From a virus: DNA of 64,000 bases. Below the pieces are notes generated by a model. The model was not told where the DNA came from, searched no databases, and saw only the letters and a program-made list of their open reading frames with translations. Shown here in pieces: positions 6,699 to 57,113 of the stretch. Position numbers and translations under genes: made by a program. The stretch lies in the IMG/VR virus record IMGVR_UViG_3300039412_000320, one strand, 5' to 3'. Every line of letters starts with the position of its first letter. Position 1 is the first letter of the stretch.

Positions 6699-9059
6699 TT
6701 AGTCATTCGGGATACCGTCGTTGGGTCCGAACATCGCATCGCCAATGTTGATTGCCTTTGGCGTGGAGGCGTCGGAAGCCATCACCGGCTTAATTTTCTT
6801 AAGCGTCGGCTTGGCGGCGGGCTTGGCGGCTGCCTTGGGAGCGGCTGCCTTACCTTGGGACTGAGGAGTCTGTCCGGGGGCGGGTTCCTTCAAAGCGGGA
6901 ACGGCGTCCTGCGGAGTACGGACGGGACCAGTGCCAGTAGAGTTTTCCTTGAACTCCTGCGGCTCGGGGGCGGCGTCAGTGATGACTTCGGCCCACAGGT
7001 CGTCCTTGTGGTCTTCCTCGTTGTTACGGCTATCGGCGGAAGTTTCCTTCTGCTCGAAGTGCTTAGCGGCGGTTCCGTCGTAGGCCGGGATGACTTCCAT
7101 ACCCGCCACGGAGGCGGCGGTACGGACCTGACCAAGGAGGGTTGCCAACGGGTCGTCATCGGCACCTTGACGGCTGAACATGGAGGCTACGACATCCCCG
7201 AATTCCTGAATGCCGTTGTTGTCCAGAGCAGCTTCCATGGTAGAGGCGGCGGACGGCGAGAAGAAGTCAGCACCGGAGTTGTCACCTTCGTTGGCGAGGG
7301 CGGAGGTCTTCTCCTCCATGTTGTCCTCGTTAAAGATGTTCTCAAGGTTGAGTTCCTGTTCGGCACCTTCGCCTTCGAGGTTCTCTCCTTCACCTTCAAC
7401 GGACTGCCCCTCGCCTTCGAGAGTCTCACCCACTTGCTCAAGTTCCTCACCTTCGGTTTCAAGGACGCCCTCGGGCACGTCTTCTCCCTCGGTCTCTTCT
7501 TGAGCAACCGCTTCCTCAAGCTCGTGGATTTCGGTTACAAGTTCCTGTGCCTTTTCGCCGAGGTCCTTAATCTTCTCCTCGGTCACCATCTCACCAGCAC
7601 CGGCTGCATCACCCATCGGTCCCTCGGGCGGCAGTCCACCTTCGGCGGGTGGCATTTCACCTTCCACCGGAGGCATATCAGCGGGCGGCATCTCGCCTTC
7701 CACGGGTGCTGCATCCATGGGGGGCGCTGTATCTACTGGAGGTGCGGCGGGCGGAGCGGCGGGGGCTGCCGGGGCGGCTGCCTCGGGTCCGGGATACGCC
7801 TTCTTACTCTTAACGGCGGCTGCCTTGGCGGCGGTACACTTGGCGCACATCTTACCACCCTTGCAGTTCGGGCAAGTGGCTGTCTTGGCGGCTGCCTTGG
7901 GCGCTCCATCTCCACCTTCGGCCTTGGATGCACCTTCCGATAGATTCACCGTGTCTCCGGGGCGCTCACCAGCACCGGGACGCTCGGCTGCTTTACCGGC
8001 ATCGACTTCCTTCGGCTCCGAGGCGGTACCACCACCATGACCACGCCCGTCATTATAGGTCGGGGTCTGCGGTCCGGCATCCTGCCGGTCATCCGCTTTC
8101 TTGGCGGAGGCATTAACGGCCTCACCCTTGATTTCGGACTTCACGGCGCTCTTCTCTGCCGCCAAGTCACCGGGCTTATCAGCCTTCTCGGTGTCGTTCA
8201 TTTCGTCCCTGTGGACTTCCTTGAGCGTACCGAGGTCAGCAAGCCGGGTATAGTGGGCGTTGACGGCGGTCTGCTTGAGAGCAGCCTTCAAAGCGCTCGT
8301 CTTGTTGGCGAGCAGGCTTTGAGCAAACGCTTTCTGGGCTTCCACCGGAGCAGTGGGCAGCATCGTCTTGGCGATAGTCCAAGCAGCAGCCACACGAGTC
8401 TTGGCTTCCCGCTTGATAGCGTCCTTATCCGCCTTGACAGCGGCGATGGATTCCTTCATTGAAACCTTAGTGTCTTTTGCCATAATCTTTCCCCTCTCGG
8501 AGTTAGGGCTGTTGCTGCCCTTCTTATCAGGTATTTGATAGTTCTGTTTTTTGCTCGCCATCATGGGTTGGGCGGGAGCGGGCGGTGGTTCCGGGGGTAC
8601 CCCAGTGGTTCCCTCGGGGGTTTGCGGTGGTTCGGCGGGTATCTCAGCGGGTGGTTCTGCCATGGGTGCCTCAGCGGGTGATACTGGTGCTTCGGCGAGA
8701 GGGGGTTCTGCGGGTGGTTCTGCCTCGGGGGTTAGGCCGGGGCCGGGAGGAGTGGTATTTCCCAGCTTATCCCCGGTAGCGATATCTCCGAGGGTCTGGT
8801 CCAGTCCATCCAACTCACTCTTGAGTTCAGGAGACCAAGGACCTTGCTTGAAGCGTTCCCAAGCGTTCAGGAACTCTACTTTCTCCTTCATGCCTTGGAT
8901 ATCCTTCTCGATTTCCTTACGCTTTTCAGCGAGATAATCGAAAGTCTTCCCACCCTCACCCTCGGGAAGAGTCATATCCAAGTTCTTGATTTCATTGTCC
9001 AAAGCGCCAAGCTCTGCAACCTTGCGCCTATATACGGAGATGAGTGGATTTATTACCAT
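6699..9059 (-). CDS. large (786 aa) low-complexity Pro/Ala/Glu-rich protein with CxxC zinc ribbon; possible scaffold/internal virion protein
   Basis: PAEPP, EGE and APAAP repeats; TCPNCKGGKMCAKC zinc ribbon; acidic tracts. Confidence 0.6.
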   Translation of the reverse strand: MVINPLISVYRRKVAELGALDNEIKNLDMTLPEGEGGKTFDYLAEKRKEIEKDIQGMKEKVEFLNAWERFKQGPWSPELKSELDGLDQTLGDIATGDKLGNTTPPGPGLTPEAEPPAEPPLAEAPVSPAEAPMAEPPAEIPAEPPQTPEGTTGVPPEPPPAPAQPMMASKKQNYQIPDKKGSNSPNSERGKIMAKDTKVSMKESIAAVKADKDAIKREAKTRVAAAWTIAKTMLPTAPVEAQKAFAQSLLANKTSALKAALKQTAVNAHYTRLADLGTLKEVHRDEMNDTEKADKPGDLAAEKSAVKSEIKGEAVNASAKKADDRQDAGPQTPTYNDGRGHGGGTASEPKEVDAGKAAERPGAGERPGDTVNLSEGASKAEGGDGAPKAAAKTATCPNCKGGKMCAKCTAAKAAAVKSKKAYPGPEAAAPAAPAAPPAAPPVDTAPPMDAAPVEGEMPPADMPPVEGEMPPAEGGLPPEGPMGDAAGAGEMVTEEKIKDLGEKAQELVTEIHELEEAVAQEETEGEDVPEGVLETEGEELEQVGETLEGEGQSVEGEGENLEGEGAEQELNLENIFNEDNMEEKTSALANEGDNSGADFFSPSAASTMEAALDNNGIQEFGDVVASMFSRQGADDDPLATLLGQVRTAASVAGMEVIPAYDGTAAKHFEQKETSADSRNNEEDHKDDLWAEVITDAAPEPQEFKENSTGTGPVRTPQDAVPALKEPAPGQTPQSQGKAAAPKAAAKPAAKPTLKKIKPVMASDASTPKAINIGDAMFGPNDGIPND

Positions 9060-32674: not shown

Positions 32675-33691
32675 TCACTTGTTAAAGCCCGGATGCGAGA
32701 CGCCTTCACTGGACTTCGGCTTAATCTTCATTCCCTTTAGCCGTTCGATGGTTTCGTCAAATGGCCGGTCAAGGCATTGCGTAGCGACCACGAACTCCCG
32801 CAGGTGGGCAATGCTGAGGTCGTTGGTTTCCTTCGCCCAACCGGCTATTTGCTCTTTCGTGAATTTCTCTCCGATGGCACGGGTCAGATACATGCGTCGG
32901 GCCGACTCGTCCGGCATAGGGACCTTTATCACTTCGTCAAAGCGGCTCGGGCGGTTGACGATACGAGGCCCGAGGTTCTCAGGGTAGTTCGTCGTGGCGA
33001 TATGCACCACGTTGTTTACCTGATGCTCACCGTCCAGAAAGCTGAGCAAATCGTGTTCGCCCCGGTGCTCAATCACTTCCTCAATATCTTCCATGATGAC
33101 GATAAGCGGGCGGTCCGGCTCTATCCGGCGAAGGACCCGCAGAGCGTTGATTGCCATGCCCGGATGCTGGCAGATGATGACAATACCGCCCCGCTTGATG
33201 AGCTTTTCAATAAGCAGAGCGACCGTCGCCGTCTTACCCGACCCGGCGTTGCCCCACAGGAGGATACCCCGCTTGAACAGGATGCCCATAGCGGAGAACT
33301 TCTCCTTGGAGTCCCAAAAGGTTTCGATGGAGTTGATGACCTGTTGAGTGACCGTCTCCCCAAGGTCATAAAGGGTGTCAGTCATTGGCTTGGACTTGAG
33401 GAAGTATATCCTCCCGTCGCTGTCCTGAGAGAGGTTGTAGACCCCCGGAGGAAGCGTATCAGTGGTCTTGGAGGAGGCGGAAAAGCTACCGTTAGGATGC
33501 ACCTGCCACTGGCAGACGTTCATGGTGATGACATCATCGGATTCGTCGCTCCCCGTGGGACCTTGGGCGCTAGTCTTATTTCCACGGGGAACACCTTGGT
33601 CTGAATCCCTTGCTGCCTTATCGTTCATCCTACCTTGCAGTTCCGCCCAATCGTCGGATGCTGACATATTTTCTCCCTCACATTTCGGCAT
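32675..33691 (-). CDS. AAA+ ATPase
   Basis: Walker A GNAGSGKTAT, Walker B IVIMEDIEE, sensor-2-like NRPSRFD; start overlaps NadV stop (TAATG). Confidence 0.75.
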   Translation of the reverse strand: MPKCEGENMSASDDWAELQGRMNDKAARDSDQGVPRGNKTSAQGPTGSDESDDVITMNVCQWQVHPNGSFSASSKTTDTLPPGVYNLSQDSDGRIYFLKSKPMTDTLYDLGETVTQQVINSIETFWDSKEKFSAMGILFKRGILLWGNAGSGKTATVALLIEKLIKRGGIVIICQHPGMAINALRVLRRIEPDRPLIVIMEDIEEVIEHRGEHDLLSFLDGEHQVNNVVHIATTNYPENLGPRIVNRPSRFDEVIKVPMPDESARRMYLTRAIGEKFTKEQIAGWAKETNDLSIAHLREFVVATQCLDRPFDETIERLKGMKIKPKSSEGVSHPGFNK

Positions 33692-35121
33692 TAGTCATCT
33701 TCCCGGTTGTAGCGGTCATAACCGCTGGAGATTTCCCGGACTTCGTCAAGGGTCTGGTGCCGCTTAATTACCCCATCTTCAAATACTGTCTCCAGCTTAT
33801 CTTCGTGGCCTGTGGCGAGCTTCATATCGTATTCCTGCTCCACAGTCTCGAATTCCCCATCCGACAGTTCCAAGAGGGAGAACCTGCCGCCGATGGATGC
33901 CTTGGACGGGTCGGTCTTAACCGTCTTGTGAACATCCTCCCACCGACCGTCCCGGCAGATAGCGGAGCATTTGATGGCGAACCGCATGGTATCACGGTTC
34001 TGCTGTTGAAGCAAAGCACCGCCCATGCCGTAGCCCCAGTTGTCCATGGACCACCCGGCCCGTGTCAGGTGACTGTTGATGCGGCAGATGTTCTGGTAGT
34101 TGACTCCGTCGCCTTGGATGACCCGGACCTGCTTGGGCAGGACCTTCCAACCCTTAGCGTTTGTCTCGAAGCCAAACTTCTCGGCAATGGCGTTGAACAT
34201 GTCTTCAATGACGACACAGGGGTCACCGCTATCCGGGCGCAGGACCACCACGCCGTCACGCCGCAGAATTGTTTCCCGCAACTTGCCGCCGAAGATGTTA
34301 GCAACGGCGTTGTGGGTGTCGTAGCTGTCTACCACGAGCGCCACGAGGCCAGCCGGGACCTTCTCCAGCATGTTGGCATAAGCCTCAGCCTCGGCATCCT
34401 CACCCCACGAAGTAACGGTGGAGTGCTCCATCGCCGGGATGGAGAAACCGGCGCAGGGGCAATCGTAGAACTGCTCCAGAAGCGAAAGAGCCGCCATGGT
34501 GTCGGTGCCCATGAAATTGACAAGGTGGGCAGCCCCGCCGATAGCAGCGGTCTCCTGAGAGCTAACGCCCCTGTATCCGAAGTCGTGCAACTTGAAACCG
34601 AGTCCAGCCGGGTCACCGGTACGCACAAGGTCCCTGCCGATGGTCTGCTTGATTTCAAATGACAGGGTCCCAACCGTGATGGGATACCACACTTGCAGGA
34701 GTTGGGTTTCCGCCCAGTTGGTCAGCCACGGGAATTCCTTGTCGGTGTTTTCGATGGTCATCAACACGTTCTTGATGGGAACCACGGTACCCTCTTTAAC
34801 CGCACGAATGCGCAGGGGCAACTTGCCGCCATGCTTTTCCAGCAACCGCATCCAGCCGTTGAAGTTGAATACTTCATCGTTGCCGAAATGCCGGTGACAA
34901 ATGCGGGCAGCTTCGTGGACATCTTTCTTGGTGAACACCTTGCCCTCGAAGTATGCGGCGAGGATGTATTGCAGCCCGGAGAACAATGTGTGCTGCCAGA
35001 AACCACCCCGGCTCATGAGGTAGCTGTACACATATTCCGCATCCGAAGGATACTGAAACCAGTGCGACAGCTTGTAGCTGTCTGTCCTTAAAATGGGGTT
35101 AAGCTTGAGTGCTTTGGGCAT
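33691..35121 (-). CDS. nadV: nicotinamide phosphoribosyltransferase (NAMPT/NadV family)
   Basis: MPKALKLNPILRTDSYKLSHWFQYP matches NAMPT N-terminus (NILLATDSYKVTHYKQYP); about 475 aa; start set to that Met. Confidence 0.85.
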   Translation of the reverse strand: MPKALKLNPILRTDSYKLSHWFQYPSDAEYVYSYLMSRGGFWQHTLFSGLQYILAAYFEGKVFTKKDVHEAARICHRHFGNDEVFNFNGWMRLLEKHGGKLPLRIRAVKEGTVVPIKNVLMTIENTDKEFPWLTNWAETQLLQVWYPITVGTLSFEIKQTIGRDLVRTGDPAGLGFKLHDFGYRGVSSQETAAIGGAAHLVNFMGTDTMAALSLLEQFYDCPCAGFSIPAMEHSTVTSWGEDAEAEAYANMLEKVPAGLVALVVDSYDTHNAVANIFGGKLRETILRRDGVVVLRPDSGDPCVVIEDMFNAIAEKFGFETNAKGWKVLPKQVRVIQGDGVNYQNICRINSHLTRAGWSMDNWGYGMGGALLQQQNRDTMRFAIKCSAICRDGRWEDVHKTVKTDPSKASIGGRFSLLELSDGEFETVEQEYDMKLATGHEDKLETVFEDGVIKRHQTLDEVREISSGYDRYNREDD

Positions 35122-36040
35122 GTGTGTTCTCCTTTTTGGTAAGATGTTGTTGCAGCATCTCGAAGAGAGGACGATGCTCCTTCTCAAAATCCTCCACAGT
35201 CAATTTGCTTATGTCAAACCACTGCGCTTGGGAAAGGTCATCGCTGCCCTTCCCGCCCATAGTCATACTGTACGCCATGAAGAAGACGGTCTTGAAGCCC
35301 TCAGATGGCTCCGAGCGCCAGCGCCAGCTATCGACCTTGCGGGAGCCGACATATTCAAGGTCTTGGATGTCCAGACCCGTCTCCTCGAACGCTTCCTTCT
35401 TGGCATCAGCCTCGAAGGTTGGCGTGCTGAATATTGCGTGCCCGCCCGGAAAACGCCAGAACGTGTCATCTGGCTTCTTGCCGAGGAGAAGCATCAAACC
35501 CTTCTCCGCCTTGTGCAGGATAGCAATGTCCACCACGGTGACAAGCCGGGGCCACAGTTGGTTCATGGCGTAGATGACACCCGCCCGGAAAAATGGCGAC
35601 TCCATGACATTGTTGGTCAGCTTGGCACGGATATCCGTGCTGGTAAGGGACGCCGGGACCTCTATCTCCAGTTCCTTGACCTTGTGCTTCCCGTGATAGA
35701 AGGGAGCGAATGAGTCCCTACTACCGTATAATACCACTTCGTGGGGAACTTCTCCCACGGCTTCGGAGATGCGCTCATCCAAACTGTCTGACCACTGTTC
35801 GTCGGTCTTGCAGTCCCGCAGGGGCAATACGGTGAACTCGGGGAACTTCGCCTGAATCATTTTCTTCCGAGTCTCGAAGTCTAACGGGTCGTGCCGGGTC
35901 GGACCGACCTTATTGCAGCCAAGGAATACGATAACCCGCTGGTGACGCCCACGCACAATACGAAAAATTTCAAGGTGCCCGTCATGGAGTTCGTGAACTT
36001 GGAACCGGCCAACTAAAACACCAAATGATGGTTTGGTCAT
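35099..36040 (-). CDS. natV: bifunctional NMN adenylyltransferase / Nudix hydrolase (NadM/NatV-like)
   Basis: GRFQVHELHDGH matches (H/T)xGH nucleotidyltransferase motif; C-terminal Nudix box GLMLLLGKKPDDTFWRFPGGHA...EADAKKEAFEETGLDI. Confidence 0.8.
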   Translation of the reverse strand: MTKPSFGVLVGRFQVHELHDGHLEIFRIVRGRHQRVIVFLGCNKVGPTRHDPLDFETRKKMIQAKFPEFTVLPLRDCKTDEQWSDSLDERISEAVGEVPHEVVLYGSRDSFAPFYHGKHKVKELEIEVPASLTSTDIRAKLTNNVMESPFFRAGVIYAMNQLWPRLVTVVDIAILHKAEKGLMLLLGKKPDDTFWRFPGGHAIFSTPTFEADAKKEAFEETGLDIQDLEYVGSRKVDSWRWRSEPSEGFKTVFFMAYSMTMGGKGSDDLSQAQWFDISKLTVEDFEKEHRPLFEMLQQHLTKKENTHAQSTQA

Positions 36041-41107: not shown

Positions 41108-43909
41108 TTACAAAACTCCGATTTCAGAAAGGAACCTAGAGGGTCGAACGGAGATTGTATTGGGTCCACGGAATTCCAATGCATGAACACAAATGTTCAA
41201 AACATCCTTTGCCCTCGTACAGGCCACGTATAGAAGCCTCCGCTCCTCCTCCCACTCGGTTGGAGTAGTACAAAAACGGTGGGGAATGCTGCCCTCAGTG
41301 ACATTGGTGACATAGACCCGACGCCACTCTAACCCCTTGGCGCTGTGGATGGTACTGATGGTTACGGCCCCCTCTTCATCATCTTCATCGGTGGGGCGCT
41401 CCATGGCAAGCTGAAACACAAGGTCTTCGGCAGATAAACCGGTATCATTGACCAGACCTTCCACCAAAGAAACAAACCGGTCAATGTTCTCACACTTCGT
41501 CCGTGCCTTGCTGGCCTCCCGTGCATACTTCTGATTGATGTAATCCTTGTACCGAAAGAGGTTAATGATTTCCTCTAAAGCGGCCATTGGAGAAGAAAGG
41601 CGGCTCTTCACTTCCCCCATTGCCCGAGAGAACAAGTCAAGTTTATCATTGGTACCGCACGCCGCCAGCAGGTCGCCGCCGTGGTCGGCCTCCGCCCGGA
41701 CTCGTATCTTTTCGATGGCTACATCCCCGACTCCCCGCTTGGGAGTGCTGATTGCCCGACTAAAAGCGGGGTAATCTTTGGGGTTGACCGCCAGACGGAA
41801 ATAAGAAAGCAGGTCTTTGATTTCCTCGGTTTGAAGTAATCCCCTGCCGCCCCGGACGATATAAGGGATACGCAGGCGAACGAGCGCACCTTCTAGGTCC
41901 CGGACCTGGATGGCGCTACGCACGAGGATGGCATTATCCTTGTAGTCAATGTGCTTTCCCTTAACGCCATTGTCGTGTTGTATCTCCCGAGCGATGATGT
42001 TGGCGATTTCTCCCGGCGTGCTAGAACGAATGAGCCGGGCGGTGCCGGTCTCTACTTCCTTGTCCCCCTCCATTCCCCGGAACACTTGCATCTTGAGGGG
42101 AATGACCTCGGTCATCGTGGCATTGATGCGGTTGGATAACCGGATGATGGCGGGAAGGCTCCGGTGGTTGCGAGAGATACGATACAGGTCCGGTACATGC
42201 CCACGCCAGCCCTCACTAAACTCCTTGAGCAACCGTGGCTCTGCCCCCTGAAAGGCGTAGATAGAATTCCCAACCGGTACTTCATCAGCTACATATCTAT
42301 GGTCTATCTCTACGTCAAGGGAGTACACTAACCCGGAGTAATTCTCGGAGATGACTGAAGTTATCGGAGAACTACCCCTGTCTTCCAGATGAGGCAATTC
42401 CATAACTTCAGGAATAAGGTTGGCTGCGACTATCTTGAAATATGGACTCCGTCCCCAATTCTGCCTGTTCTTTTCAGGCTTACTCCATATGGGGTATTCA
42501 AATAGAAGACCTTGGTCCTCCAGACACCTATACCCGCCACTGGGGTCAGACGCAGCAAATATCCGCTTCACCTGTTCGATGCTTTTTTCGGATAGTCCGT
42601 AATTTTCAAATTCGGTATGAGGTATGCCGTACCTAAGAGAAAATATCTGTTCTTGGGTCTCTGCTTCAATGTGGTCATCTGTAATTTTTAGCAACCACAT
42701 CTTGTCGCATTTCTGAACCGCCGCCCTTCGGGCGAACAAGCTGACATTGCCAGACCCTTTGAGCGTAACCCTACCGACCCTAAATCCCCAGTCCTGTCGC
42801 CACATAAGATAGACTGCAAAAACTCTTCTCGTGGTCAAGGATGGAGAAAATCTAGCCCAGAACCAGTGATTGGGGGTAACTCTGGTTGTATTTCCCTTAT
42901 AGGATACAGAAAGCATCCTTCCATTATACATACGGCTAGAAGTCTTTATCTTTCTTCCATCTAAAACCACAAACTGCTTCTTCTGCCCCCTTCTACAAAC
43001 CCAAAACGGGCTCCAAGACACGACTCTGTTGCCATCACGAAGCTCGCTTATATCCTTTAACGTGACTTTTGCACCTGAAAGTTTGTATGCTCGCTTCTCA
43101 AGCACTCTTACCTTTGTTCCCGCAGGCTGACATTGGGCCAAATCTCCGACCATATACAGGTTTTGATTAGAGTCGGGTAGCAAGTTATTGACAAAAACAT
43201 GCTGGGTCGGGCTGAGGTCTTGACTTTCATCGACCAAAACATGCCAAAACCGAGATTGGAGCTTCAGTTTCCATGCTGACTGCTCTGCTGCTCGTTTATT
43301 TACCAGTAACACCATGTCGTCAAAATCCACCATCCGGCACTTTTTCTTCTCTTCCTCGAAGCTGTACCAAATCTTGGTCTCCCAGTCTTCCAGAGCGTGA
43401 TATCCGGCGTGGTGTTCAAGGGCCTCCTCATGCACTTCATCGGTGTAGTCGGCGGAGAATCCTATCCCCCGTGCCCGATGGTAGCCGAGCTTCTCAAGGA
43501 ACCGATAGGGATTGTGTTCCTCCCCCGGTTCGGGCTTGCTCCGTTCGATGAGCTTCTTTACCATTTGAGATTGGTCATAGTCGTCCATCGGTGTGACCCT
43601 TCCCTCGAATCCGAAACCCTCGGGGTCTTTACGGATGGCATTCAAGGCAAGGCTGTGGATGGTACTGATGTGCGGTCTCTCGGTGGTAAGGTTATCGTCA
43701 GAGCCACAAACACGTCTCTCCAGTTCGGATGCCGCCTTCGAGGTAAAGGTTATGGCCGCAATCCGAAAAGGAGGCACCCCTTGAGTCATCAACCATCGCA
43801 CTCTCTCTGTCAAGGTAGCGGTCTTACCAGAACCGGCACCAGCTATCAAACAAGCGGGACGCCCTATTGGATGAGCCACGGCTCTGATTTGCTCGTCAGT
43901 AAGTTGCAC
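41108..43909 (-). CDS. UvrD/PcrA-family SF1 DNA helicase interrupted by an intein in helicase motif III
   Basis: Walker A AGAGSGKTAT; DESQD; motif III split as GDLAQ|C...intein...N|SIYAFQGA; extein about 644 aa. Confidence 0.85.
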   Translation of the reverse strand: MQLTDEQIRAVAHPIGRPACLIAGAGSGKTATLTERVRWLMTQGVPPFRIAAITFTSKAASELERRVCGSDDNLTTERPHISTIHSLALNAIRKDPEGFGFEGRVTPMDDYDQSQMVKKLIERSKPEPGEEHNPYRFLEKLGYHRARGIGFSADYTDEVHEEALEHHAGYHALEDWETKIWYSFEEEKKKCRMVDFDDMVLLVNKRAAEQSAWKLKLQSRFWHVLVDESQDLSPTQHVFVNNLLPDSNQNLYMVGDLAQCQPAGTKVRVLEKRAYKLSGAKVTLKDISELRDGNRVVSWSPFWVCRRGQKKQFVVLDGRKIKTSSRMYNGRMLSVSYKGNTTRVTPNHWFWARFSPSLTTRRVFAVYLMWRQDWGFRVGRVTLKGSGNVSLFARRAAVQKCDKMWLLKITDDHIEAETQEQIFSLRYGIPHTEFENYGLSEKSIEQVKRIFAASDPSGGYRCLEDQGLLFEYPIWSKPEKNRQNWGRSPYFKIVAANLIPEVMELPHLEDRGSSPITSVISENYSGLVYSLDVEIDHRYVADEVPVGNSIYAFQGAEPRLLKEFSEGWRGHVPDLYRISRNHRSLPAIIRLSNRINATMTEVIPLKMQVFRGMEGDKEVETGTARLIRSSTPGEIANIIAREIQHDNGVKGKHIDYKDNAILVRSAIQVRDLEGALVRLRIPYIVRGGRGLLQTEEIKDLLSYFRLAVNPKDYPAFSRAISTPKRGVGDVAIEKIRVRAEADHGGDLLAACGTNDKLDLFSRAMGEVKSRLSSPMAALEEIINLFRYKDYINQKYAREASKARTKCENIDRFVSLVEGLVNDTGLSAEDLVFQLAMERPTDEDDEEGAVTISTIHSAKGLEWRRVYVTNVTEGSIPHRFCTTPTEWEEERRLLYVACTRAKDVLNICVHALEFRGPNTISVRPSRFLSEIGVL
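42266..43132 (-). mobile_element. intein (289 aa) inside UvrD-like helicase
   Basis: Begins with Cys after GDLAQ; block B TPNHWFWA (TxxH); C-terminal VYSLDVEIDHRYVADEVPVGN followed by Ser matches VYDLxVExxHNFVANGxxVHN|S; no clear LAGLIDADG or HNH motif. Confidence 0.7.
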
Positions 43910-53522: not shown

Positions 53523-53960
53523 TTAGTGCTTTTCATCGGGATATAGCCGAAGTTTCTTACCGGCCAATACCTCGATTCGTTCCCGATACAAAATCTTGCC
53601 GTAGTCATCTTCAATCTGAATGGTGTGCGACCCGGCCTTGAGCCAAAACTTCCGCAAGGTGCCGGTCATTCCGGCGAATCCCCCGTCCACGATAACCCGG
53701 TTACCCACCTTGGTGGTTTTTATCTCCACCCTGCCAGCGGCGGCAACCACGATGTAGTTGTTCCCCCACGGGGGAACGCAGTTGATGCCGAAGCACTGCG
53801 CCGGGTAAGCCACAGGTCCATAGTAGAAGACGTAGTGCGGGTGACCCCACCAAGCCGAAGCCGGGACACTGACCGCAAGTACCAGTACTAACGCTGCAAT
53901 AAACTTTGAGAGCTTGTTCATGTGAACCTCCACACCATTAGATACGGGAGACCAAACCAC
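53523..53960 (-). CDS. secreted protein with PEGA-like domain
   Basis: N-terminal signal-peptide-like MNKLSKFIAALVLVLAVSVPASA; C-terminal RVIVDGGFAGMTGTLRKFWLKAGSHTIQIEDDYGKILYRERIEV fits PEGA pattern. Confidence 0.45.
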   Translation of the reverse strand: MVWSPVSNGVEVHMNKLSKFIAALVLVLAVSVPASAWWGHPHYVFYYGPVAYPAQCFGINCVPPWGNNYIVVAAAGRVEIKTTKVGNRVIVDGGFAGMTGTLRKFWLKAGSHTIQIEDDYGKILYRERIEVLAGKKLRLYPDEKH

Positions 53961-54717
53961 TGTTATCGTCGTTTCGTCGTTTCATTCTTTTCATCATTCT
54001 GCGGACCGCCGTCTCGGTGACTCCAAGCTCTATCGCCACGGCGATGTTGTTGGAAGCCTCTACTCGGCGTTTGAGTTCTTCATAGGATGGCCAAAAAGCC
54101 TTGCAATTCAACCCAACCCGGTCGTGCCCGGCACAGCTTTTGCATTTTTTAGACGGCTTGCTAACCCTCTTCCCGCAAGCAGAACAATACCGATAGATGT
54201 TCACCCCCCTATTATTCCTTCCCGTGAAAGTAGAACTCTGACTGTCGCAGTTAGGGCAAAGTAGACGCAAGTTGCCTATTCGGTTGTCGTTGTTCACACC
54301 ATTGATATGGTCAAGACGGAGCACTAATGGTCTGCCGTTCCACTCAGGGAGAAGTCCGCACTCAAAGCACTTGTTCTCAAGCAGACCGTCGTGGAGCAAC
54401 CGGCGTTTAAGTTGGCACCTGCTGTAAGGTGAATTTTCTACTAGAACGGTATCTAATGGTACAGCTTTGCGGTGCCCGCCTGAACCTTTCCTATTTCCTA
54501 GACCTCTGGGAATATGGGAAATGTCTAGACCATCTTCTTTGACCCTCCGAAGCACGGTATGGAAGTTCCCGCCGATATTCCTAAGACCGCAACGACTTAC
54601 CATCTCCCTAATGGTTCTAGATGTGCGGACAATCTCCGTAAATTCCTCAGATGGAATAAACCAGATTCGACTACGTTTTTTTCTCTTTAGACTCATACTA
54701 AAGAGATACGAAGTCAA
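53938..54717 (-). CDS. HNH homing endonuclease
   Basis: CFECG...LRLDHINGVNNDNRIGNLRLLCPNCDSQ; paralog-like to 55789..56631. Confidence 0.75.
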   Translation of the reverse strand: MTSYLFSMSLKRKKRSRIWFIPSEEFTEIVRTSRTIREMVSRCGLRNIGGNFHTVLRRVKEDGLDISHIPRGLGNRKGSGGHRKAVPLDTVLVENSPYSRCQLKRRLLHDGLLENKCFECGLLPEWNGRPLVLRLDHINGVNNDNRIGNLRLLCPNCDSQSSTFTGRNNRGVNIYRYCSACGKRVSKPSKKCKSCAGHDRVGLNCKAFWPSYEELKRRVEASNNIAVAIELGVTETAVRRMMKRMKRRNDDNSGLVSRI

Positions 54718-54748
54718 GGTACGAAAAATTATAAATTATTGAAAACTT

Positions 54749-54826
54749 TGGTTCCAGAGGGAGGACTCGAACCTCCAGTCTCAACGGGTTCAAAGCCCGG
54801 CGTGTTACCAATTACACTACTCTGGA
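54749..54826 (-). tRNA. tRNA gene; apparent anticodon UUG (Gln?), assignment tentative
   Basis: Hand-folded cloverleaf: acceptor TCCAGAG/CTCTGGA, D-arm GTGT-AATTGGTA-ACAC, anticodon loop CTTTGAA, T-arm GGAGG-TTCGAGT-CCTCC, CCA encoded; one mismatch at top of anticodon stem; 7-nt variable loop. Confidence 0.6.
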
Positions 54827-54833
54827 ATAAAGC

Positions 54834-54921
54834 TGGATGGGAAGGAGGGACTCGAACCCTCACAAGCATTTACTGTCTCCTGATTCAAAGTCAGGCGTGT
54901 TACCAATTACACCACTTCCCA
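54834..54921 (-). tRNA. tRNA-like gene with 17-nt variable arm; identical D-arm and anticodon loop to preceding tRNA (apparent UUG)
   Basis: Acceptor TGGGAAG/CTTCCCA, D-arm GTGT-AATTGGTA-ACAC, anticodon stem CCTGA/TCAGG loop CTTTGAA, variable AGACAGTAAATGCTTGT, T-arm GAGGG-TTCGAGT-CCCTC, CCA encoded. Confidence 0.55.
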
Positions 54922-54960
54922 ATCTATGTCAAACGCATCAAAAATGGTGCATTTGGAAAC

Positions 54961-55046
54961 TGGAGCCGGGTGCGGGATTTTAACCCACGTGGGATTTCTC
55001 CGCCTGCTTACAGGACAGGTGCCATCGTACACTAGGCTAACCCGGC
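54961..55046 (-). tRNA. tRNA-like gene, type II (14-nt variable arm, 3-bp D-stem); anticodon unresolved by hand
   Basis: Acceptor GCCGGGT/ACCCGGC, T-arm GTGGG-TTAAAAT-CCCGC, CCA encoded; anticodon stem CCTGT/GCAGG gives loop CCTGTAA with C at position 33, which is atypical. Confidence 0.45.
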
Positions 55047-55498
55047 TAACGACCGATACCACCACTTCTACATGCTCTACAAAATCTCTGGACTCCCGAG
55101 GGTTGCCACTTATTAAGATTGAACAATCCCTTACCCAGAAACTTTTTATGTCCATAGCACCATGCTTCTCCTTCTGGTGCTGTGTTTACATGATTAATTC
55201 TAGCTCTTTCTAGTTGTTCTCTTAACTTGGGAATATTCCTTCGTGCCGCCCTAATGTTGCATGACTTGTGAGAAAAGGCAATGTTACCTAAATCCCAAAA
55301 CAGGTCAGGCGACATATCCAGCCAAGGTTTCTTGTGTTCAATAGAGAACTGAGCGGCGTTCTCAATCTTTTTGCCACATTGAAAGCAGCTATCCAAATTA
55401 AGTTGCTTCGCCATATGGAAAAGTAGTTGCTTCAACAACCTTCCACTTGCTGTTCCAAAAGGCATCCCCAACTGATTTCTTACCTTATAGTGGTCCAT
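55046..55498 (-). CDS. HNH endonuclease
   Basis: CFQCGKKIENAAQFSIEHKKPW...GNIAFSHKSCN; stop abuts 5' end of tRNA at 55046. Confidence 0.7.
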   Translation of the reverse strand: MDHYKVRNQLGMPFGTASGRLLKQLLFHMAKQLNLDSCFQCGKKIENAAQFSIEHKKPWLDMSPDLFWDLGNIAFSHKSCNIRAARRNIPKLREQLERARINHVNTAPEGEAWCYGHKKFLGKGLFNLNKWQPSGVQRFCRACRSGGIGR

Positions 55499-55581
55499 AC
55501 TCCACCCCCAATAAAGGTGGAGATAGTTGAGAATTTGGGAATTACAGTTGTCTCCATTCTAAAAAAATACTCAATAAAACT

Positions 55582-55657
55582 TGGAGCCCAAGGTCAGAAT
55601 CGAACTGACGACCCCTCCCTTACCAAGGGAATGCTCTACCACTGAGCTACGAGGGCT
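55582..55657 (-). tRNA. tRNA gene, apparent anticodon GGU (Thr)
   Basis: D-arm GCTC-AGTGGTA-GAGC, anticodon arm TTCCC-TTGGTAA-GGGAG, T-arm GTCAG-TTCGATT-CTGAC; acceptor stem shows two mismatches in my hand fold. Confidence 0.55.
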
Positions 55658-55662
55658 AAAAA

Positions 55663-55738
55663 TGGAGCCGATGAGCGGCCCTGACCCGCTGACCTCTCGC
55701 TTACGAGGCGAGTGCTCTGCCACCTGAGCTACATCGGC
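55663..55738 (-). tRNA. tRNA gene, apparent anticodon CGU (Thr)
   Basis: Perfect acceptor GCCGATG/CATCGGC, D-arm GCTC-AGGTGGCA-GAGC, anticodon arm CTCGC-CTCGTAA-GCGAG; T-loop GTCAGGG non-canonical; CCA encoded. Confidence 0.6.
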
Positions 55739-55788
55739 ATAGGGACGCCCCGAGGGCGACCCCAACTCCTCCCACTATGGTGGGTGAG

Positions 55789-56631
55789 CTAAAAACTTGG
55801 TCCAGTCGGGAAGAGTCGAACTTCCGTTGTGCGATTATCAGTCGCAAGTTCTACCGTTGAACTAAGACTGGTCTTCAAATTTCCGTGTCTTACAAGCGCA
55901 CGGAACTTCCCGGAACAAGACTGGTTGCAAAACTTCAACTTTCCTTCTTCGTGAGGACGGTCTTTTAGCTCTTGATGGCAGAATCCGCACTCTGCTAGTT
56001 TACACGCCTCGGCTGTCATTCCACCATGTCGCTCCAAAAGTGCCTTACAGCGACGATAGTTTAAGGCATTGCGATTCTTCCCAAGAGACTCCAAGGCTGC
56101 GCCAATGCTACGAGTCTCAAGTAGAGCTACTAAAAGCCGCTCATCAGTTATTTCGTAATCGCCTTTCCTATGACCCCTTCCCCTTCCTTTACCACAGTAT
56201 GTCGGCGTCTGGCTGTGGCAATTAGGGCATAGACCTCGAAGGTTCTCACGCTGATTATTTTGCGTATCCCCGTCAGCATGGTCAACCTGCAACGTCAGAG
56301 GAGTTCCCATCCACTCCTTAATTCCACAACGAGAGCAAGCCTTGTCTTGCTCAACGATAACCCGTTTCTTCTTGCTCTCAACGGTCAAGGAATCAAAATC
56401 CGCTTCCAACAACTGTCTAAGCTTGGTTTGGCTTGAGCGCCGACCCGCTCTTTCCCTGGCCTCCTGACTTACCTTATGACCATAAAGCTTAAGGGATATT
56501 TTTTTGTTCTTCTCCTTCCGATTCTGTGTTGAAACAAAATTTCTAGCACAAAACTCGGAACAGAACCGCCCTGACCCATACGACCCATCATGCTCTTTCT
56601 TGCACTTCTCGTTCTCACATTGAACCACCAT
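55789..56631 (-). CDS. HNH homing endonuclease (ORF reads through tRNA 55808..55881 before reaching a stop)
   Basis: CSRCG...LQVDHADGDTQNNQRENLRGLCPNCHSQ; last 30 codons are encoded by the tRNA sequence. Confidence 0.7.
   Translation of the reverse strand: MVVQCENEKCKKEHDGSYGSGRFCSEFCARNFVSTQNRKEKNKKISLKLYGHKVSQEARERAGRRSSQTKLRQLLEADFDSLTVESKKKRVIVEQDKACSRCGIKEWMGTPLTLQVDHADGDTQNNQRENLRGLCPNCHSQTPTYCGKGRGRGHRKGDYEITDERLLVALLETRSIGAALESLGKNRNALNYRRCKALLERHGGMTAEACKLAECGFCHQELKDRPHEEGKLKFCNQSCSGKFRALVRHGNLKTSLSSTVELATDNRTTEVRLFPTGPSF
55808..55881 (-). tRNA. tRNA gene, apparent anticodon GAU (Ile)
   Basis: D-arm GTTC-AACGGTA-GAAC, anticodon arm TGCGA-CTGATAA-TCGCA, T-arm GGAAG-TTCGACT-CTTCC, CCA encoded; overlaps 3' end of HNH ORF 55789..56631. 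Confidence 0.6.
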
Positions 56632-56672
56632 TATAGTATGCTCCTATAATAGTGGTTCAAAAGTCCAATCTT

Positions 56673-56747
56673 TGGTGCGCCCGGAAGGACTCAAACCTTC
56701 GTGACTCCCCTATCGAGGGAGCATATTCGTCGCTATATGACAGGCGC
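56673..56747 (-). tRNA. tRNA-like gene, atypical (D-loop lacks GG; anticodon loop TCGATAG with C33); apparent anticodon GAU
   Basis: Acceptor GCGCCTG/CGGGCGC, T-arm GAAGG-TTTGAGT-CCTTC, CCA encoded; may be degenerate. Confidence 0.4.
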
Positions 56748-56753
56748 ACAATC

Positions 56754-57113
56754 TTAACCTAATATCCTCTTAATCTCTTCCTCAACTCTCTCCCGGAACA
56801 ACGCAAAGTGCTGCACAAATCCAAGCGGTGGATCACAAGATCCGGGGAAGATATCCACTCCCTCGGGGACCCTGTCGTAGTCCCGCTCATGCGGAACCTT
56901 TCCCATATCCCGGACGATGTGAACAATAGCCGCTTTGGCTCCCTCCGGGCCGAACAACTTCTGCGCCTCTCTCACTCCATGCAGGTTATGGCGCATCCTG
57001 CGGTGCCGGGGGCCGAACTTCCAGAACAATCCATCGACCCACAGGTTGACATCCTCATGCTTATTGCCGAGGATGATTTGACAGTCCATGCAATGCTGCT
57101 GGAACTTCGCCAT
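56754..57113 (-). CDS. conserved-looking hypothetical protein (start at MAKFQQHC)
   Basis: Track ORF begins at GTG 57131 inside terminator T-tract; ATG 57113 preceded by GGGGG; Cys/His motif HCMDCQ. Confidence 0.5.
   Translation of the reverse strand: MAKFQQHCMDCQIILGNKHEDVNLWVDGLFWKFGPRHRRMRHNLHGVREAQKLFGPEGAKAAIVHIVRDMGKVPHERDYDRVPEGVDIFPGSCDPPLGFVQHFALFRERVEEEIKRILG

Follow-up and report, generated by a model that had tools for sequence, protein, structure and literature searches.

A long and a short tRNA(UUG) gene in a phage tRNA array

The window analyzed in this study, a 64,000-nt stretch of DNA from an uncultured jumbo phage (IMG/VR virus record IMGVR_UViG_3300039412_000320), carries a tRNA array interleaved with three HNH endonuclease open reading frames (ORFs). 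The minus strand of this array holds two intact tRNA(UUG) genes, a long gene of 88 nt and a short gene of 78 nt, both of which are called tRNA-Gln(ttg) by ARAGORN (coordinates in Table 1). Because both genes are on the minus strand, the long gene is transcribed first. When examined with Rfam RF00005, whose gathering score is 29, the long gene scored 66.3 bits (E = 3e-12) and the short gene 64.3 bits (E = 1e-11); these are the two top RF00005 scores in the window, and that of the long gene is the highest. The initial annotation had described two neighboring tRNA genes with a common D arm and UUG anticodon loop, naming ARAGORN and covariance-model scoring as checks, and this description was borne out by both programs. 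The D arm (GUGU-AAUUGGUA-ACAC), all of positions 10–28 including G26 (GTGTAATTGGTAACACGCC), the anticodon loop CUUUGAA, and the T loop UUCGAGU are the same in the two genes, the UUG anticodon of the short gene being located at 54791–54793. Five independent assemblies, which stem from different samples (L246–L250; comparison sequences are cited by such L numbers), and metagenome contig L257 contain the pair with 100% identity.

The long gene is composed, in order, of the segments UGGGAAG-UG-GUGU-AAUUGGUA-ACAC-G-CCUGA-CUUUGAA-UCAGG-AGACAGUAAAUGCUUGU-GAGGG-UUCGAGU-CCCUC-CUUCCCA-U-CCA. Its four canonical stems are perfectly Watson–Crick paired, and its acceptor/T branch has the 7/5 geometry. RNAfold predicted a cloverleaf in which the 17-nt variable region forms an additional, weak hairpin, built from A-U, C-G, A-U, and G-U pairs and, if one U is bulged, also from U-G and G-C. 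The type-II architecture proposed in the initial annotation, namely a long variable arm on an otherwise canonical 7/5 cloverleaf, was thus confirmed, and the 17-nt length of the arm and the U1-A72 pair that it had pointed out are both present. In addition, the gene has G2-C71, G3-C70, G10, the discriminator U73 (54837), and an encoded CCA (54834–54836). All 15 conserved and all eight semi-conserved tRNA nucleotides listed in PMC10424219 are found in it; U8, A14, G18, G19, A21, U33, G53, U54, U55, C56, A58, C61, and CCA are all present. The register of the anticodon is unambiguous because the flanking 5-bp stem CCUGA/UCAGG is perfect; hence, no other triplet takes the place of UUG. The alternative register with a Ser UGA anticodon and U32, which is valid for 21 other matches of the pattern scan described below, was ruled out for the long gene. 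The RNAfold z-scores of the single tRNAs were unremarkable (−1.4), as is usual for tRNAs.

The long-arm tRNA(UUG) class and its amino-acid identity

According to reviews, long variable arms in bacteria are restricted to tRNA-Leu, -Ser, -Tyr, and -Sec (PMC7609411, PMC9976931). We scanned viral contigs with a pattern consisting of CUUUGAA, a long spacer, and a T arm and found, among the 119 stretches listed, at least 30 long-variable-region tRNA(UUG) genes of 82–92 nt, plus one more that was mis-called Phe. The other matches inside called tRNAs were ordinary tRNA-Ser(UGA) genes that have U32, or they belonged to an odd prophage family of 86-nt tRNA-like genes. The subfamily that combines the arm motif of the window's long gene (RACRG...GCUUGU) with its D arm occurs in five viral stretches, one of which is L033, in six metagenome contigs, and in the 25-gene tRNA array of a Plantactinospora isolate. 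Cellular assemblies yielded at least five long-arm tRNA(UUG) genes; among the matches listed, all lie in dense tRNA arrays and none has the look of a lone core gene. When the arm was removed from the comparison, the nearest relatives of the long gene were again long-arm tRNA(UUG) genes (L115, 0.80; L104, 0.76; L033, 0.75), and the Ile-Thr-Thr-Thr-Gln-Gln array of the window is common to L104, L115, and L121. A long tRNA(UUG) and a normal-length tRNA-Gln(UUG) co-occur in at least 12 fetched viral loci, where they are mostly adjacent. The exact combination of D arm and anticodon loop had zero matches in viral contigs. In searches against cultured phages, the window pair matched only tRNA-Leu and canonical tRNA-Gln, and BLAST of 32 other long-arm Gln genes (E ≤ 1e-8) likewise returned only tRNA-Leu and canonical T4-like tRNA-Gln, giving no cultured representative of the class.

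The arms of the class are diverse in sequence and form hairpins that typically have 0–1 unpaired nucleotide on the 5' side, a stem of 3–7 bp, often a GNRA or UUCG loop, and 2–3 unpaired nucleotides on the 3' side. Their mean minimum free energy (MFE) was −2.86 kcal/mol, as compared with −0.53 ± 0.16 kcal/mol for shuffled arms. Given that the arms fold far better than the shuffles, the class as a whole appears to be under selection for the hairpin as an RNA structure. This shuffle test was used instead of a fixed-column covariation count on a MAFFT alignment, which was abandoned because the arm register varies by subfamily and pairs chosen by MFE would be circular.

These observations bear on the suggestion in the initial annotation that the long gene might be a pseudo-tRNA, in other words, a decaying product of illegitimate recombination that is unused in translation. 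Such an origin would fit the absence of the gene from relatives with approximately 90–96% identical flanks (described below), its mosaic composition, the weak stem of its variable arm, and its atypical U73. However, the perfect canonical stems, the complete set of conserved and semi-conserved nucleotides, the encoded CCA, the top tRNA score in the window, and the five identical assemblies argue against decay, as do the intact homologs of the same architecture in many unrelated contigs and the folding of the class arms. Because the same design is found in dozens of unrelated phage contigs, it represents a maintained variant rather than a defect, and we regard the pseudo-tRNA explanation as quite improbable.

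The identity set for glutamine in bacteria comprises U1-A72, G2-C71, G3-C70, G73, G10, and an anticodon followed by A37 and U38 (PMC9976931). The long gene has U1-A72, G2-C71, G3-C70, G10, and U34-U35-G36-A37. It resembles canonical class I tRNA-Gln, such as that of E. coli and of phage T5, in these positions as well as in the 7-nt loop that holds UUG, the 7/5 branch, and the type of the D arm, whereas it differs in having a 17-nt arm instead of a variable loop of 4–5 nt, U73 instead of G73, A38 instead of U38, and a T arm and acceptor stem that are closest to those of tRNA-Leu. Across the class, the 1:72 pair is U-A in 25 of 33 long genes and in 33 of 41 canonical short phage tRNA-Gln genes. 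The discriminators are distributed as A15/G12/U6 in the long genes and A22/G12/U7 in the short Gln genes; in other phage tRNAs, A prevails in Leu (63/66) and Tyr (8/8), and Ser has G32/U16. In both the 1:72 pair and the discriminator, the long-arm class matches canonical phage tRNA-Gln and not tRNA-Leu, -Ser, or -Tyr. A naive-Bayes isotype classifier, which was trained on the phage tRNAs collected, with the anticodon, arm, and D loop left out of consideration (leave-one-out accuracy, 254/313), called 23 of the 33 long genes Gln and a single one Leu.

Taken together, we consider that the 88-nt gene is probably an intact phage elongator tRNA, most likely accepting glutamine, which is built on a class-II-like scaffold and belongs to a lineage of long-arm tRNA(UUG) genes that recurs in phage tRNA arrays; the gene itself is a mosaic. 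The long tRNA would read CAA, and CAG by wobble, and thus supply CAA/CAG decoding, with a canonical copy beside it; CAA accounts for 39% of the Gln codons in the window ORFs. We infer that it is charged with glutamine, being recognized through its Gln-type acceptor end, G10, and U34-U35-G36-A37, either by glutaminyl-tRNA synthetase (GlnRS) or by a non-discriminating glutamyl-tRNA synthetase (GluRS) together with GatCAB. GlnRS, GluRS, and leucyl-tRNA synthetase (LeuRS) are class I enzymes, from which the variable region of the tRNA faces away. Considering this side of approach, the extra arm should be tolerated. The U1-A72 pair is also read by GatCAB and GluRS2 (PMC9976931).

Several points weigh against this reading. 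The U73 and A38 of the long gene depart from the GlnRS set of E. coli, and the classifier gave a tie between Gln and Leu for this gene (−45.9 vs −46.1). The variable arm in the window is weak, with 0 kcal/mol when folded alone, and needs G-U pairs and a bulge to form. A scan for promoters and terminators gave no signal above chance. The mean best identity to tRNA-Leu is 0.684 for the long Gln genes and 0.669 for the short ones, a marginal difference. Finally, the long gene has no counterpart in L003 and L004, and it must be dispensable, since these relatives with approximately 90–96% identical flanks lack it.

The tie given by the classifier is also relevant to an identity switch, in which LeuRS, or the seryl (SerRS) or tyrosyl (TyrRS) enzyme, would charge the long tRNA through its class-II body and thereby place Leu or Ser at CAA/CAG, leading to mistranslation or recoding. 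The Leu-like T arm and acceptor stem and the A15-U48 pair, which is the same in all phage tRNA-Leu genes examined, are consistent with this idea. Moreover, the anticodon is not read by LeuRS or SerRS in bacteria (PMC9976931), and nev-tRNAs provide a precedent in vitro (PMC3333845). In contrast, among the features of a class-II tRNA-Leu, the long gene has only the long arm and A15-U48, and it lacks A73 and a Leu anticodon (NAG/NAA). A73 is crucial for Leu and Tyr and G73 is usual for Ser (PMC9976931), whereas the long gene has U73; in the class as a whole, the discriminators mirror those of canonical tRNA-Gln and not the A73 of nearly all phage tRNA-Leu. U1-A72, which is no requirement of LeuRS, is retained in most of the class. 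The long gene also does not resemble tRNA-Ser, given its weak arm stem (~4–5 bp) and U73. The arm geometry of the class, with a stem of 3–5 bp and 2–3 unpaired nucleotides on the 3' side, is Leu/Tyr-like and not Ser-like, the corresponding number of unpaired nucleotides in tRNA-Ser being 0–1.

We further checked for recoding by aligning the helicase and the nicotinamide phosphoribosyltransferase (NAMPT) of the window with 22 and 27 homologs, respectively, and considering columns with at least 70% consensus. CAA fell on conserved Gln in nine of 11 columns and CAG in 11 of 18, and none fell on Leu, Ser, or Tyr. Since CAA and CAG stand at conserved Gln, nothing points to recoding. The result excludes reassignment; low-level mischarging or mistranslation lies beyond the reach of the check. 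We thus consider an identity switch unlikely. The altered identity suggested in the initial annotation holds in an evolutionary sense, in that parts of the gene seem to be Leu-derived, but not for the acceptor end, which is Gln-type, nor for the codons, which lie at conserved Gln. A suppressor tRNA of the kind found in recoded phages was likewise rejected, the anticodon being UUG and not CUA, UCA, or UUA.

Segmental composition of the two genes and the possible role of the arm

Of the stems, only that of the D arm is common to the long and short genes. In the acceptor, anticodon, and T stems, the two sequences diverge through compensated changes, the identity being 3/7 in the 5' acceptor strand and 12/17 and 13/17 in the anticodon and T arms, respectively, with a further 3/8. 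The short gene is itself unusual in having a 7-nt variable loop, UGAGACU (54777–54783), and a C27-U43 mismatch. The IMG/VR contigs L003 and L004 (L004 is part of a contig of 317 kb) have flanks approximately 90–96% identical to the window and a sharply different tRNA array, in which two normal-length tRNA-Gln(UUG) genes, GlnA and GlnB, are present and the HNH genes of the window array are absent. By its acceptor (7/7 and 8/8) and T arm (15/17), the short gene is orthologous to GlnA. It is a mosaic, however: its ends are of the GlnA type, its D region is identical to that of the window's long gene at 18/19 positions, its anticodon arm matches that of the L104 long gene at 16/17, and its 7-nt loop retains the GAGAC with which the long-type arm starts. 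GlnB (8148–8221 in both L003 and L004) looks degenerate, with the T loop UUAGAGU (A56) and the D loop AAUGUUA without GG.

The initial annotation had proposed a recent duplication with an insertion, that is, a tandem copy of the neighboring tRNA-Gln that gained about 10 nt in its variable loop. The adjacency of the genes and the identity of positions 10–28, the anticodon loop, and the T loop are what such an event would leave behind. Nevertheless, we consider it highly improbable: the three other stems differ in a compensated manner, the short gene is orthologous to GlnA while the long gene lacks a counterpart in L003 and L004, the closest relatives of the long gene are long-arm genes of other phages, and the common D arm is a widespread type of phage tRNA-Gln, found also in canonical genes (e.g., L067 at 921 and L117 at 513). 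Segmental exchange accounts better than duplication for the common D arm, and the GAGAC remnant and the mosaic pattern of the short gene fit this view. The exchange appears to have proceeded from the long type to the short gene.

Other segments of the long gene point to tRNA-Leu. Its acceptor stem is the same as that of the long tRNA(UUG) in L115 and L121. The L115 gene and the tRNA-Leu(UAG) of Pseudomonas phage ZC08 show 84% identity, with the same anticodon stem and acceptor pairs 2–7 and a near-identical arm; the identity-relevant differences are A35U, G1-C72 to U1-A72, and A73G, and the rest are mainly in the D arm. The T arm of the window's long gene is 17/17 identical to that of tRNA-Leu(GAG) in its own jumbo-phage lineage, and the acceptor stem differs from that of the same tRNA only in pairs 1:72 and 2:71, which are Gln identity positions. 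Compared with these phage tRNA-Leu species (ZC08 UAG and jumbo-phage GAG), the long gene is alike in the long arm, the 2–3 unpaired 3' nucleotides of the arm, A15-U48, the T arm, and acceptor pairs 3–7, and differs in the UUG anticodon, U1-A72 and G2-C71 instead of G1-C72 and C2-G71, U73 instead of A73, the 4-bp D stem, and the 8-nt D loop. The link to tRNA-Leu suggested by these comparisons is confined to L115 and parts of the window gene. An origin of all members of the class by remoulding of tRNA-Leu was not confirmed, considering the marginal difference in mean identity given above and the assignment of most genes to Gln by the classifier.

The long gene would most likely have arisen by remoulding of, or recombination with, a class-II tRNA-Leu in an endonuclease-rich array. 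The composition of both genes is most simply read as the outcome of repeated remoulding and exchange of segments among tRNA genes, in an array in which homing endonucleases may come and go. Alloacceptor remoulding and anticodon shifts are documented in mitochondria and eukaryotic nuclei (PMC4783518, PMC3923123). As in these cases, the body is closer to another isoacceptor family, and L115 differs from tRNA-Leu(UAG) in one anticodon base besides 1:72 and 73; in contrast, the window gene is a mosaic and not a clean remould. An incomplete literature search found no description of remoulding in phage arrays, nor of an isotype change from class II to class I in which the long arm is kept.

Long-arm tRNAs with unexpected anticodons are known from other systems. 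The nev-tRNAs of nematodes and the noncanonical V-arm-containing tRNAs of eukaryotes (PMC3333845, PMC4300185; Hamashima 2016 via PMC5389517) are class II tRNAs with non-Leu/Ser anticodons that are also apparently Leu-derived and coexist with canonical isoacceptors. However, nev-tRNAs have retained their Leu identity and are charged with leucine in vitro (PMC3333845), whereas the phage class has a Gln-type acceptor and shows no sign of recoding, and A73 is lost in the window gene. The allo-tRNAs and the (8/4) tRNA-Ser and tRNA-His of bacteria and their phages (PMC5389517) are similar in their long arm, unexpected anticodon, and occurrence in metagenomes and phage tRNA clusters; allo-tRNAs have an 8/4 or 9/3 branch and Ser or Ala identity, and the window gene is therefore not an allo-tRNA, its branch being a perfect 7/5. 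No class-II tRNA-Gln in phages was described in the literature that we searched, the search being incomplete and a prior description possible.

As for the role of the arm, our leading guess is that it may disguise a back-up tRNA-Gln from tRNA-targeting nucleases; a neutral relic of the scaffold would be about equally likely. The long gene resembles defense-escaping phage tRNAs, such as the tRNA-Lys of T5 acting against PARIS, in being an extra phage copy with the anticodon kept and a structure unlike that of the host tRNA (PMC10264068, PMC11464382). The known cases make use of changes in the anticodon loop or stem, and a change in the variable arm is unreported. A more radical version of this idea is that the long gene encodes a tRNA-shaped RNA whose main task would be something other than decoding; it could serve as a decoy or sponge that engages a tRNA-targeting nuclease or a modification enzyme of the host, or as an element by which the array transcript is processed or recognized. 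Antiphage systems often target tRNAs and phage tRNAs counter them (PMC10264068, PMC11464382), and the repeated pairing with a canonical copy of the same anticodon suggests non-redundancy. However, the anticodon loop, Gln-type acceptor end, CCA, and tertiary nucleotides are conserved, which are needs of a translating tRNA and go beyond those of a decoy. We also know of no nuclease that targets tRNA-Gln via the variable region, and a main role outside decoding thus seems unlikely to us.

Long arms were also found on Thr(UGU), Asn, Pro, His, Asp, Glu, Cys, Met, and Gln(CUG) tRNAs in the same phages. It is conceivable, though doubtful, that phage arrays hold a general second set of long-arm tRNAs with normal identity, in which the arm would act as a shield from host tRNA-targeting nucleases or as a handle for phage factors. 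Regardless of its role, the recurrence of a long-arm glutamine tRNA across many uncultured phages, usually with a normal copy, is unexpected in light of the textbook restriction of such arms. If the long tRNA is charged with glutamine, class I GlnRS or GluRS, and possibly GatCAB, would tolerate a class II body, which would be useful for the engineering of orthogonal tRNAs, and phage arrays would be sites of tRNA isotype change and segment exchange. If the arm protects from tRNA-targeting defenses, it would constitute a new escape route distinct from mutations of the anticodon loop. There is also a consequence for annotation: records of cultured phages name similar genes tRNA-Leu, and a Thr(UGU) homolog in Synechococcus phage BUCT-ZZ01 is unannotated, so that long-arm tRNAs with unexpected anticodons may be mis-named or missed by pipelines.

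The surrounding array and other features of the window

Upstream of the pair, ARAGORN called five more tRNAs, namely Thr(UGU), Thr(GGU), Thr(CGU), and two Ile(GAU). These genes and the HNH ORFs are listed in Table 1 together with the elements of the pair.

Table 1. Coordinates of the tRNA(UUG) pair, its structural elements, and the neighboring genes in the window
Feature	Position	Strand	Basis
Long tRNA(UUG), predicted tRNA-Gln, 88 nt including encoded CCA, class-II-like on a 7/5 cloverleaf	54834–54921	−	ARAGORN, Rfam, RNAfold; identical copies in L246–L250 and L257
17-nt variable arm of the long gene, AGACAGUAAAUGCUUGU, weak hairpin	54862–54878	−	RNAfold; homologous arm motif in L033, L252, L259, L260, L186
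Anticodon UUG of the long gene (plus strand: CAA); loop CUUUGAA at 54884–54890	54886–54888	−	Sequence, ARAGORN, Rfam
5' acceptor strand of the long gene, UGGGAAG; partner CUUCCCA at 54838–54844	54915–54921	−	Stem identical to that of the L115/L121 long tRNA(UUG)
T arm of the long gene, GAGGG-UUCGAGU-CCCUC	54845–54861	−	17/17 to tRNA-Leu(GAG), L081 3673–3759 and L112 964–1050
D arm of the long gene, GUGU-AAUUGGUA-ACAC, 4-bp stem, 8-nt loop	54897–54912	−	Identical in the short neighbor
Short tRNA(UUG), predicted tRNA-Gln, 78 nt, A73, encoded CCA	54749–54826	−	ARAGORN, Rfam, segment comparison
HNH homing-endonuclease ORF directly downstream of the pair, at the place of GlnB in relatives	53938–54717	−	PHROG 10822 (E = 1e-37); map versus L003
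tRNA-Thr(UGU), 86 nt, 14-nt variable arm (CGGAGAAAUCCCAC)	54961–55046	−	ARAGORN, Rfam, RNAfold; homologs in L115, L121, and Synechococcus phage BUCT-ZZ01
HNH endonuclease ORF within the tRNA array	55046–55498	−	PHROG 23251, Pfam HNH
tRNA-Thr(GGU), tRNA-Thr(CGU), two tRNA-Ile(GAU), and a further HNH ORF (55789–56631)	55582–56747	−	ARAGORN, Rfam, PHROG

The Thr(UGU) gene is the second tRNA in the window array that has a long arm and is not Leu, Ser, or Tyr; its arm forms a hairpin. Its anticodon loop is CCUGUAA, with C33 replacing the near-universal U33, and both the arm and C33 are also present in the L115 and L121 homologs. The homolog in BUCT-ZZ01 (L002 3005–3090) has the arm and U33 and is absent from the GenBank annotation. 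In the same phage (L002, 115912–122001), ARAGORN called eight tRNAs, including one with a CUA anticodon, and a tmRNA-like gene, where the record has hypothetical coding sequences only. Long-arm tRNAs for Asn, Pro, His, Asp, Glu, Cys, Met, and Ile were seen in L060, L062, L072, L080, L100, L147, L031, and L069, and in many cases the phage array in question also contains a tRNA of normal length with the same anticodon. In Pseudomonas phage ZC08, an 82-nt tRNA-Pro(UGG) (L124 901–982) adjoins a 75-nt tRNA-Pro(UGG), which may be a long/short pair in a cultured phage. The 86-nt prophage tRNA-like gene (GCGAGCGUAGUUCAACGGUAGAAC...) mentioned above is conserved in L006, L009, L011, L012, and about 20 other prophage-type uncultivated virus genome loci. 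ARAGORN calls it Lys(ttt); its variable region of 18 nt is unstructured, and its anticodon stem pairs poorly.

When 53938–56794 of the window was compared with 7203–8240 of L003, the tRNA array was the sole hypervariable block, and most tRNA sequences were replaced. L246 has no call where L247 and L248 have a 280-residue HNH ORF, with the same tRNA coordinates, which may be a difference in gene calling. The tRNA-Ile(GAU) called by ARAGORN at 56673–56747 on the minus strand is below the Rfam gathering score and has a D loop without a clear GG and the T loop UUUGAGU (U56); a similar gene is present in L104.

Megablast of 24 kb of the window gave no match to cultured phages. The protein search returned distant jumbo-phage relatives only. 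Elsewhere in the window, we found a UvrD-type helicase, GIY-YIG endonucleases, a GmrSD-like protein, and an NAD salvage pair. The NAD salvage pair (33691–36040, minus strand) consists of a NAMPT (NAMPT_N and NAPRTase) and a Nudix-domain protein, the latter with a weak, sub-threshold cytidylyltransferase-like match. The helicase (41108–43909, minus strand; 933 residues) has an insertion of about 300 residues between its N- and C-terminal helicase domains. This insertion is missing in many homologs of 640–680 residues, and some homologs have intein or homing-endonuclease Pfam domains; it is a possible intein.

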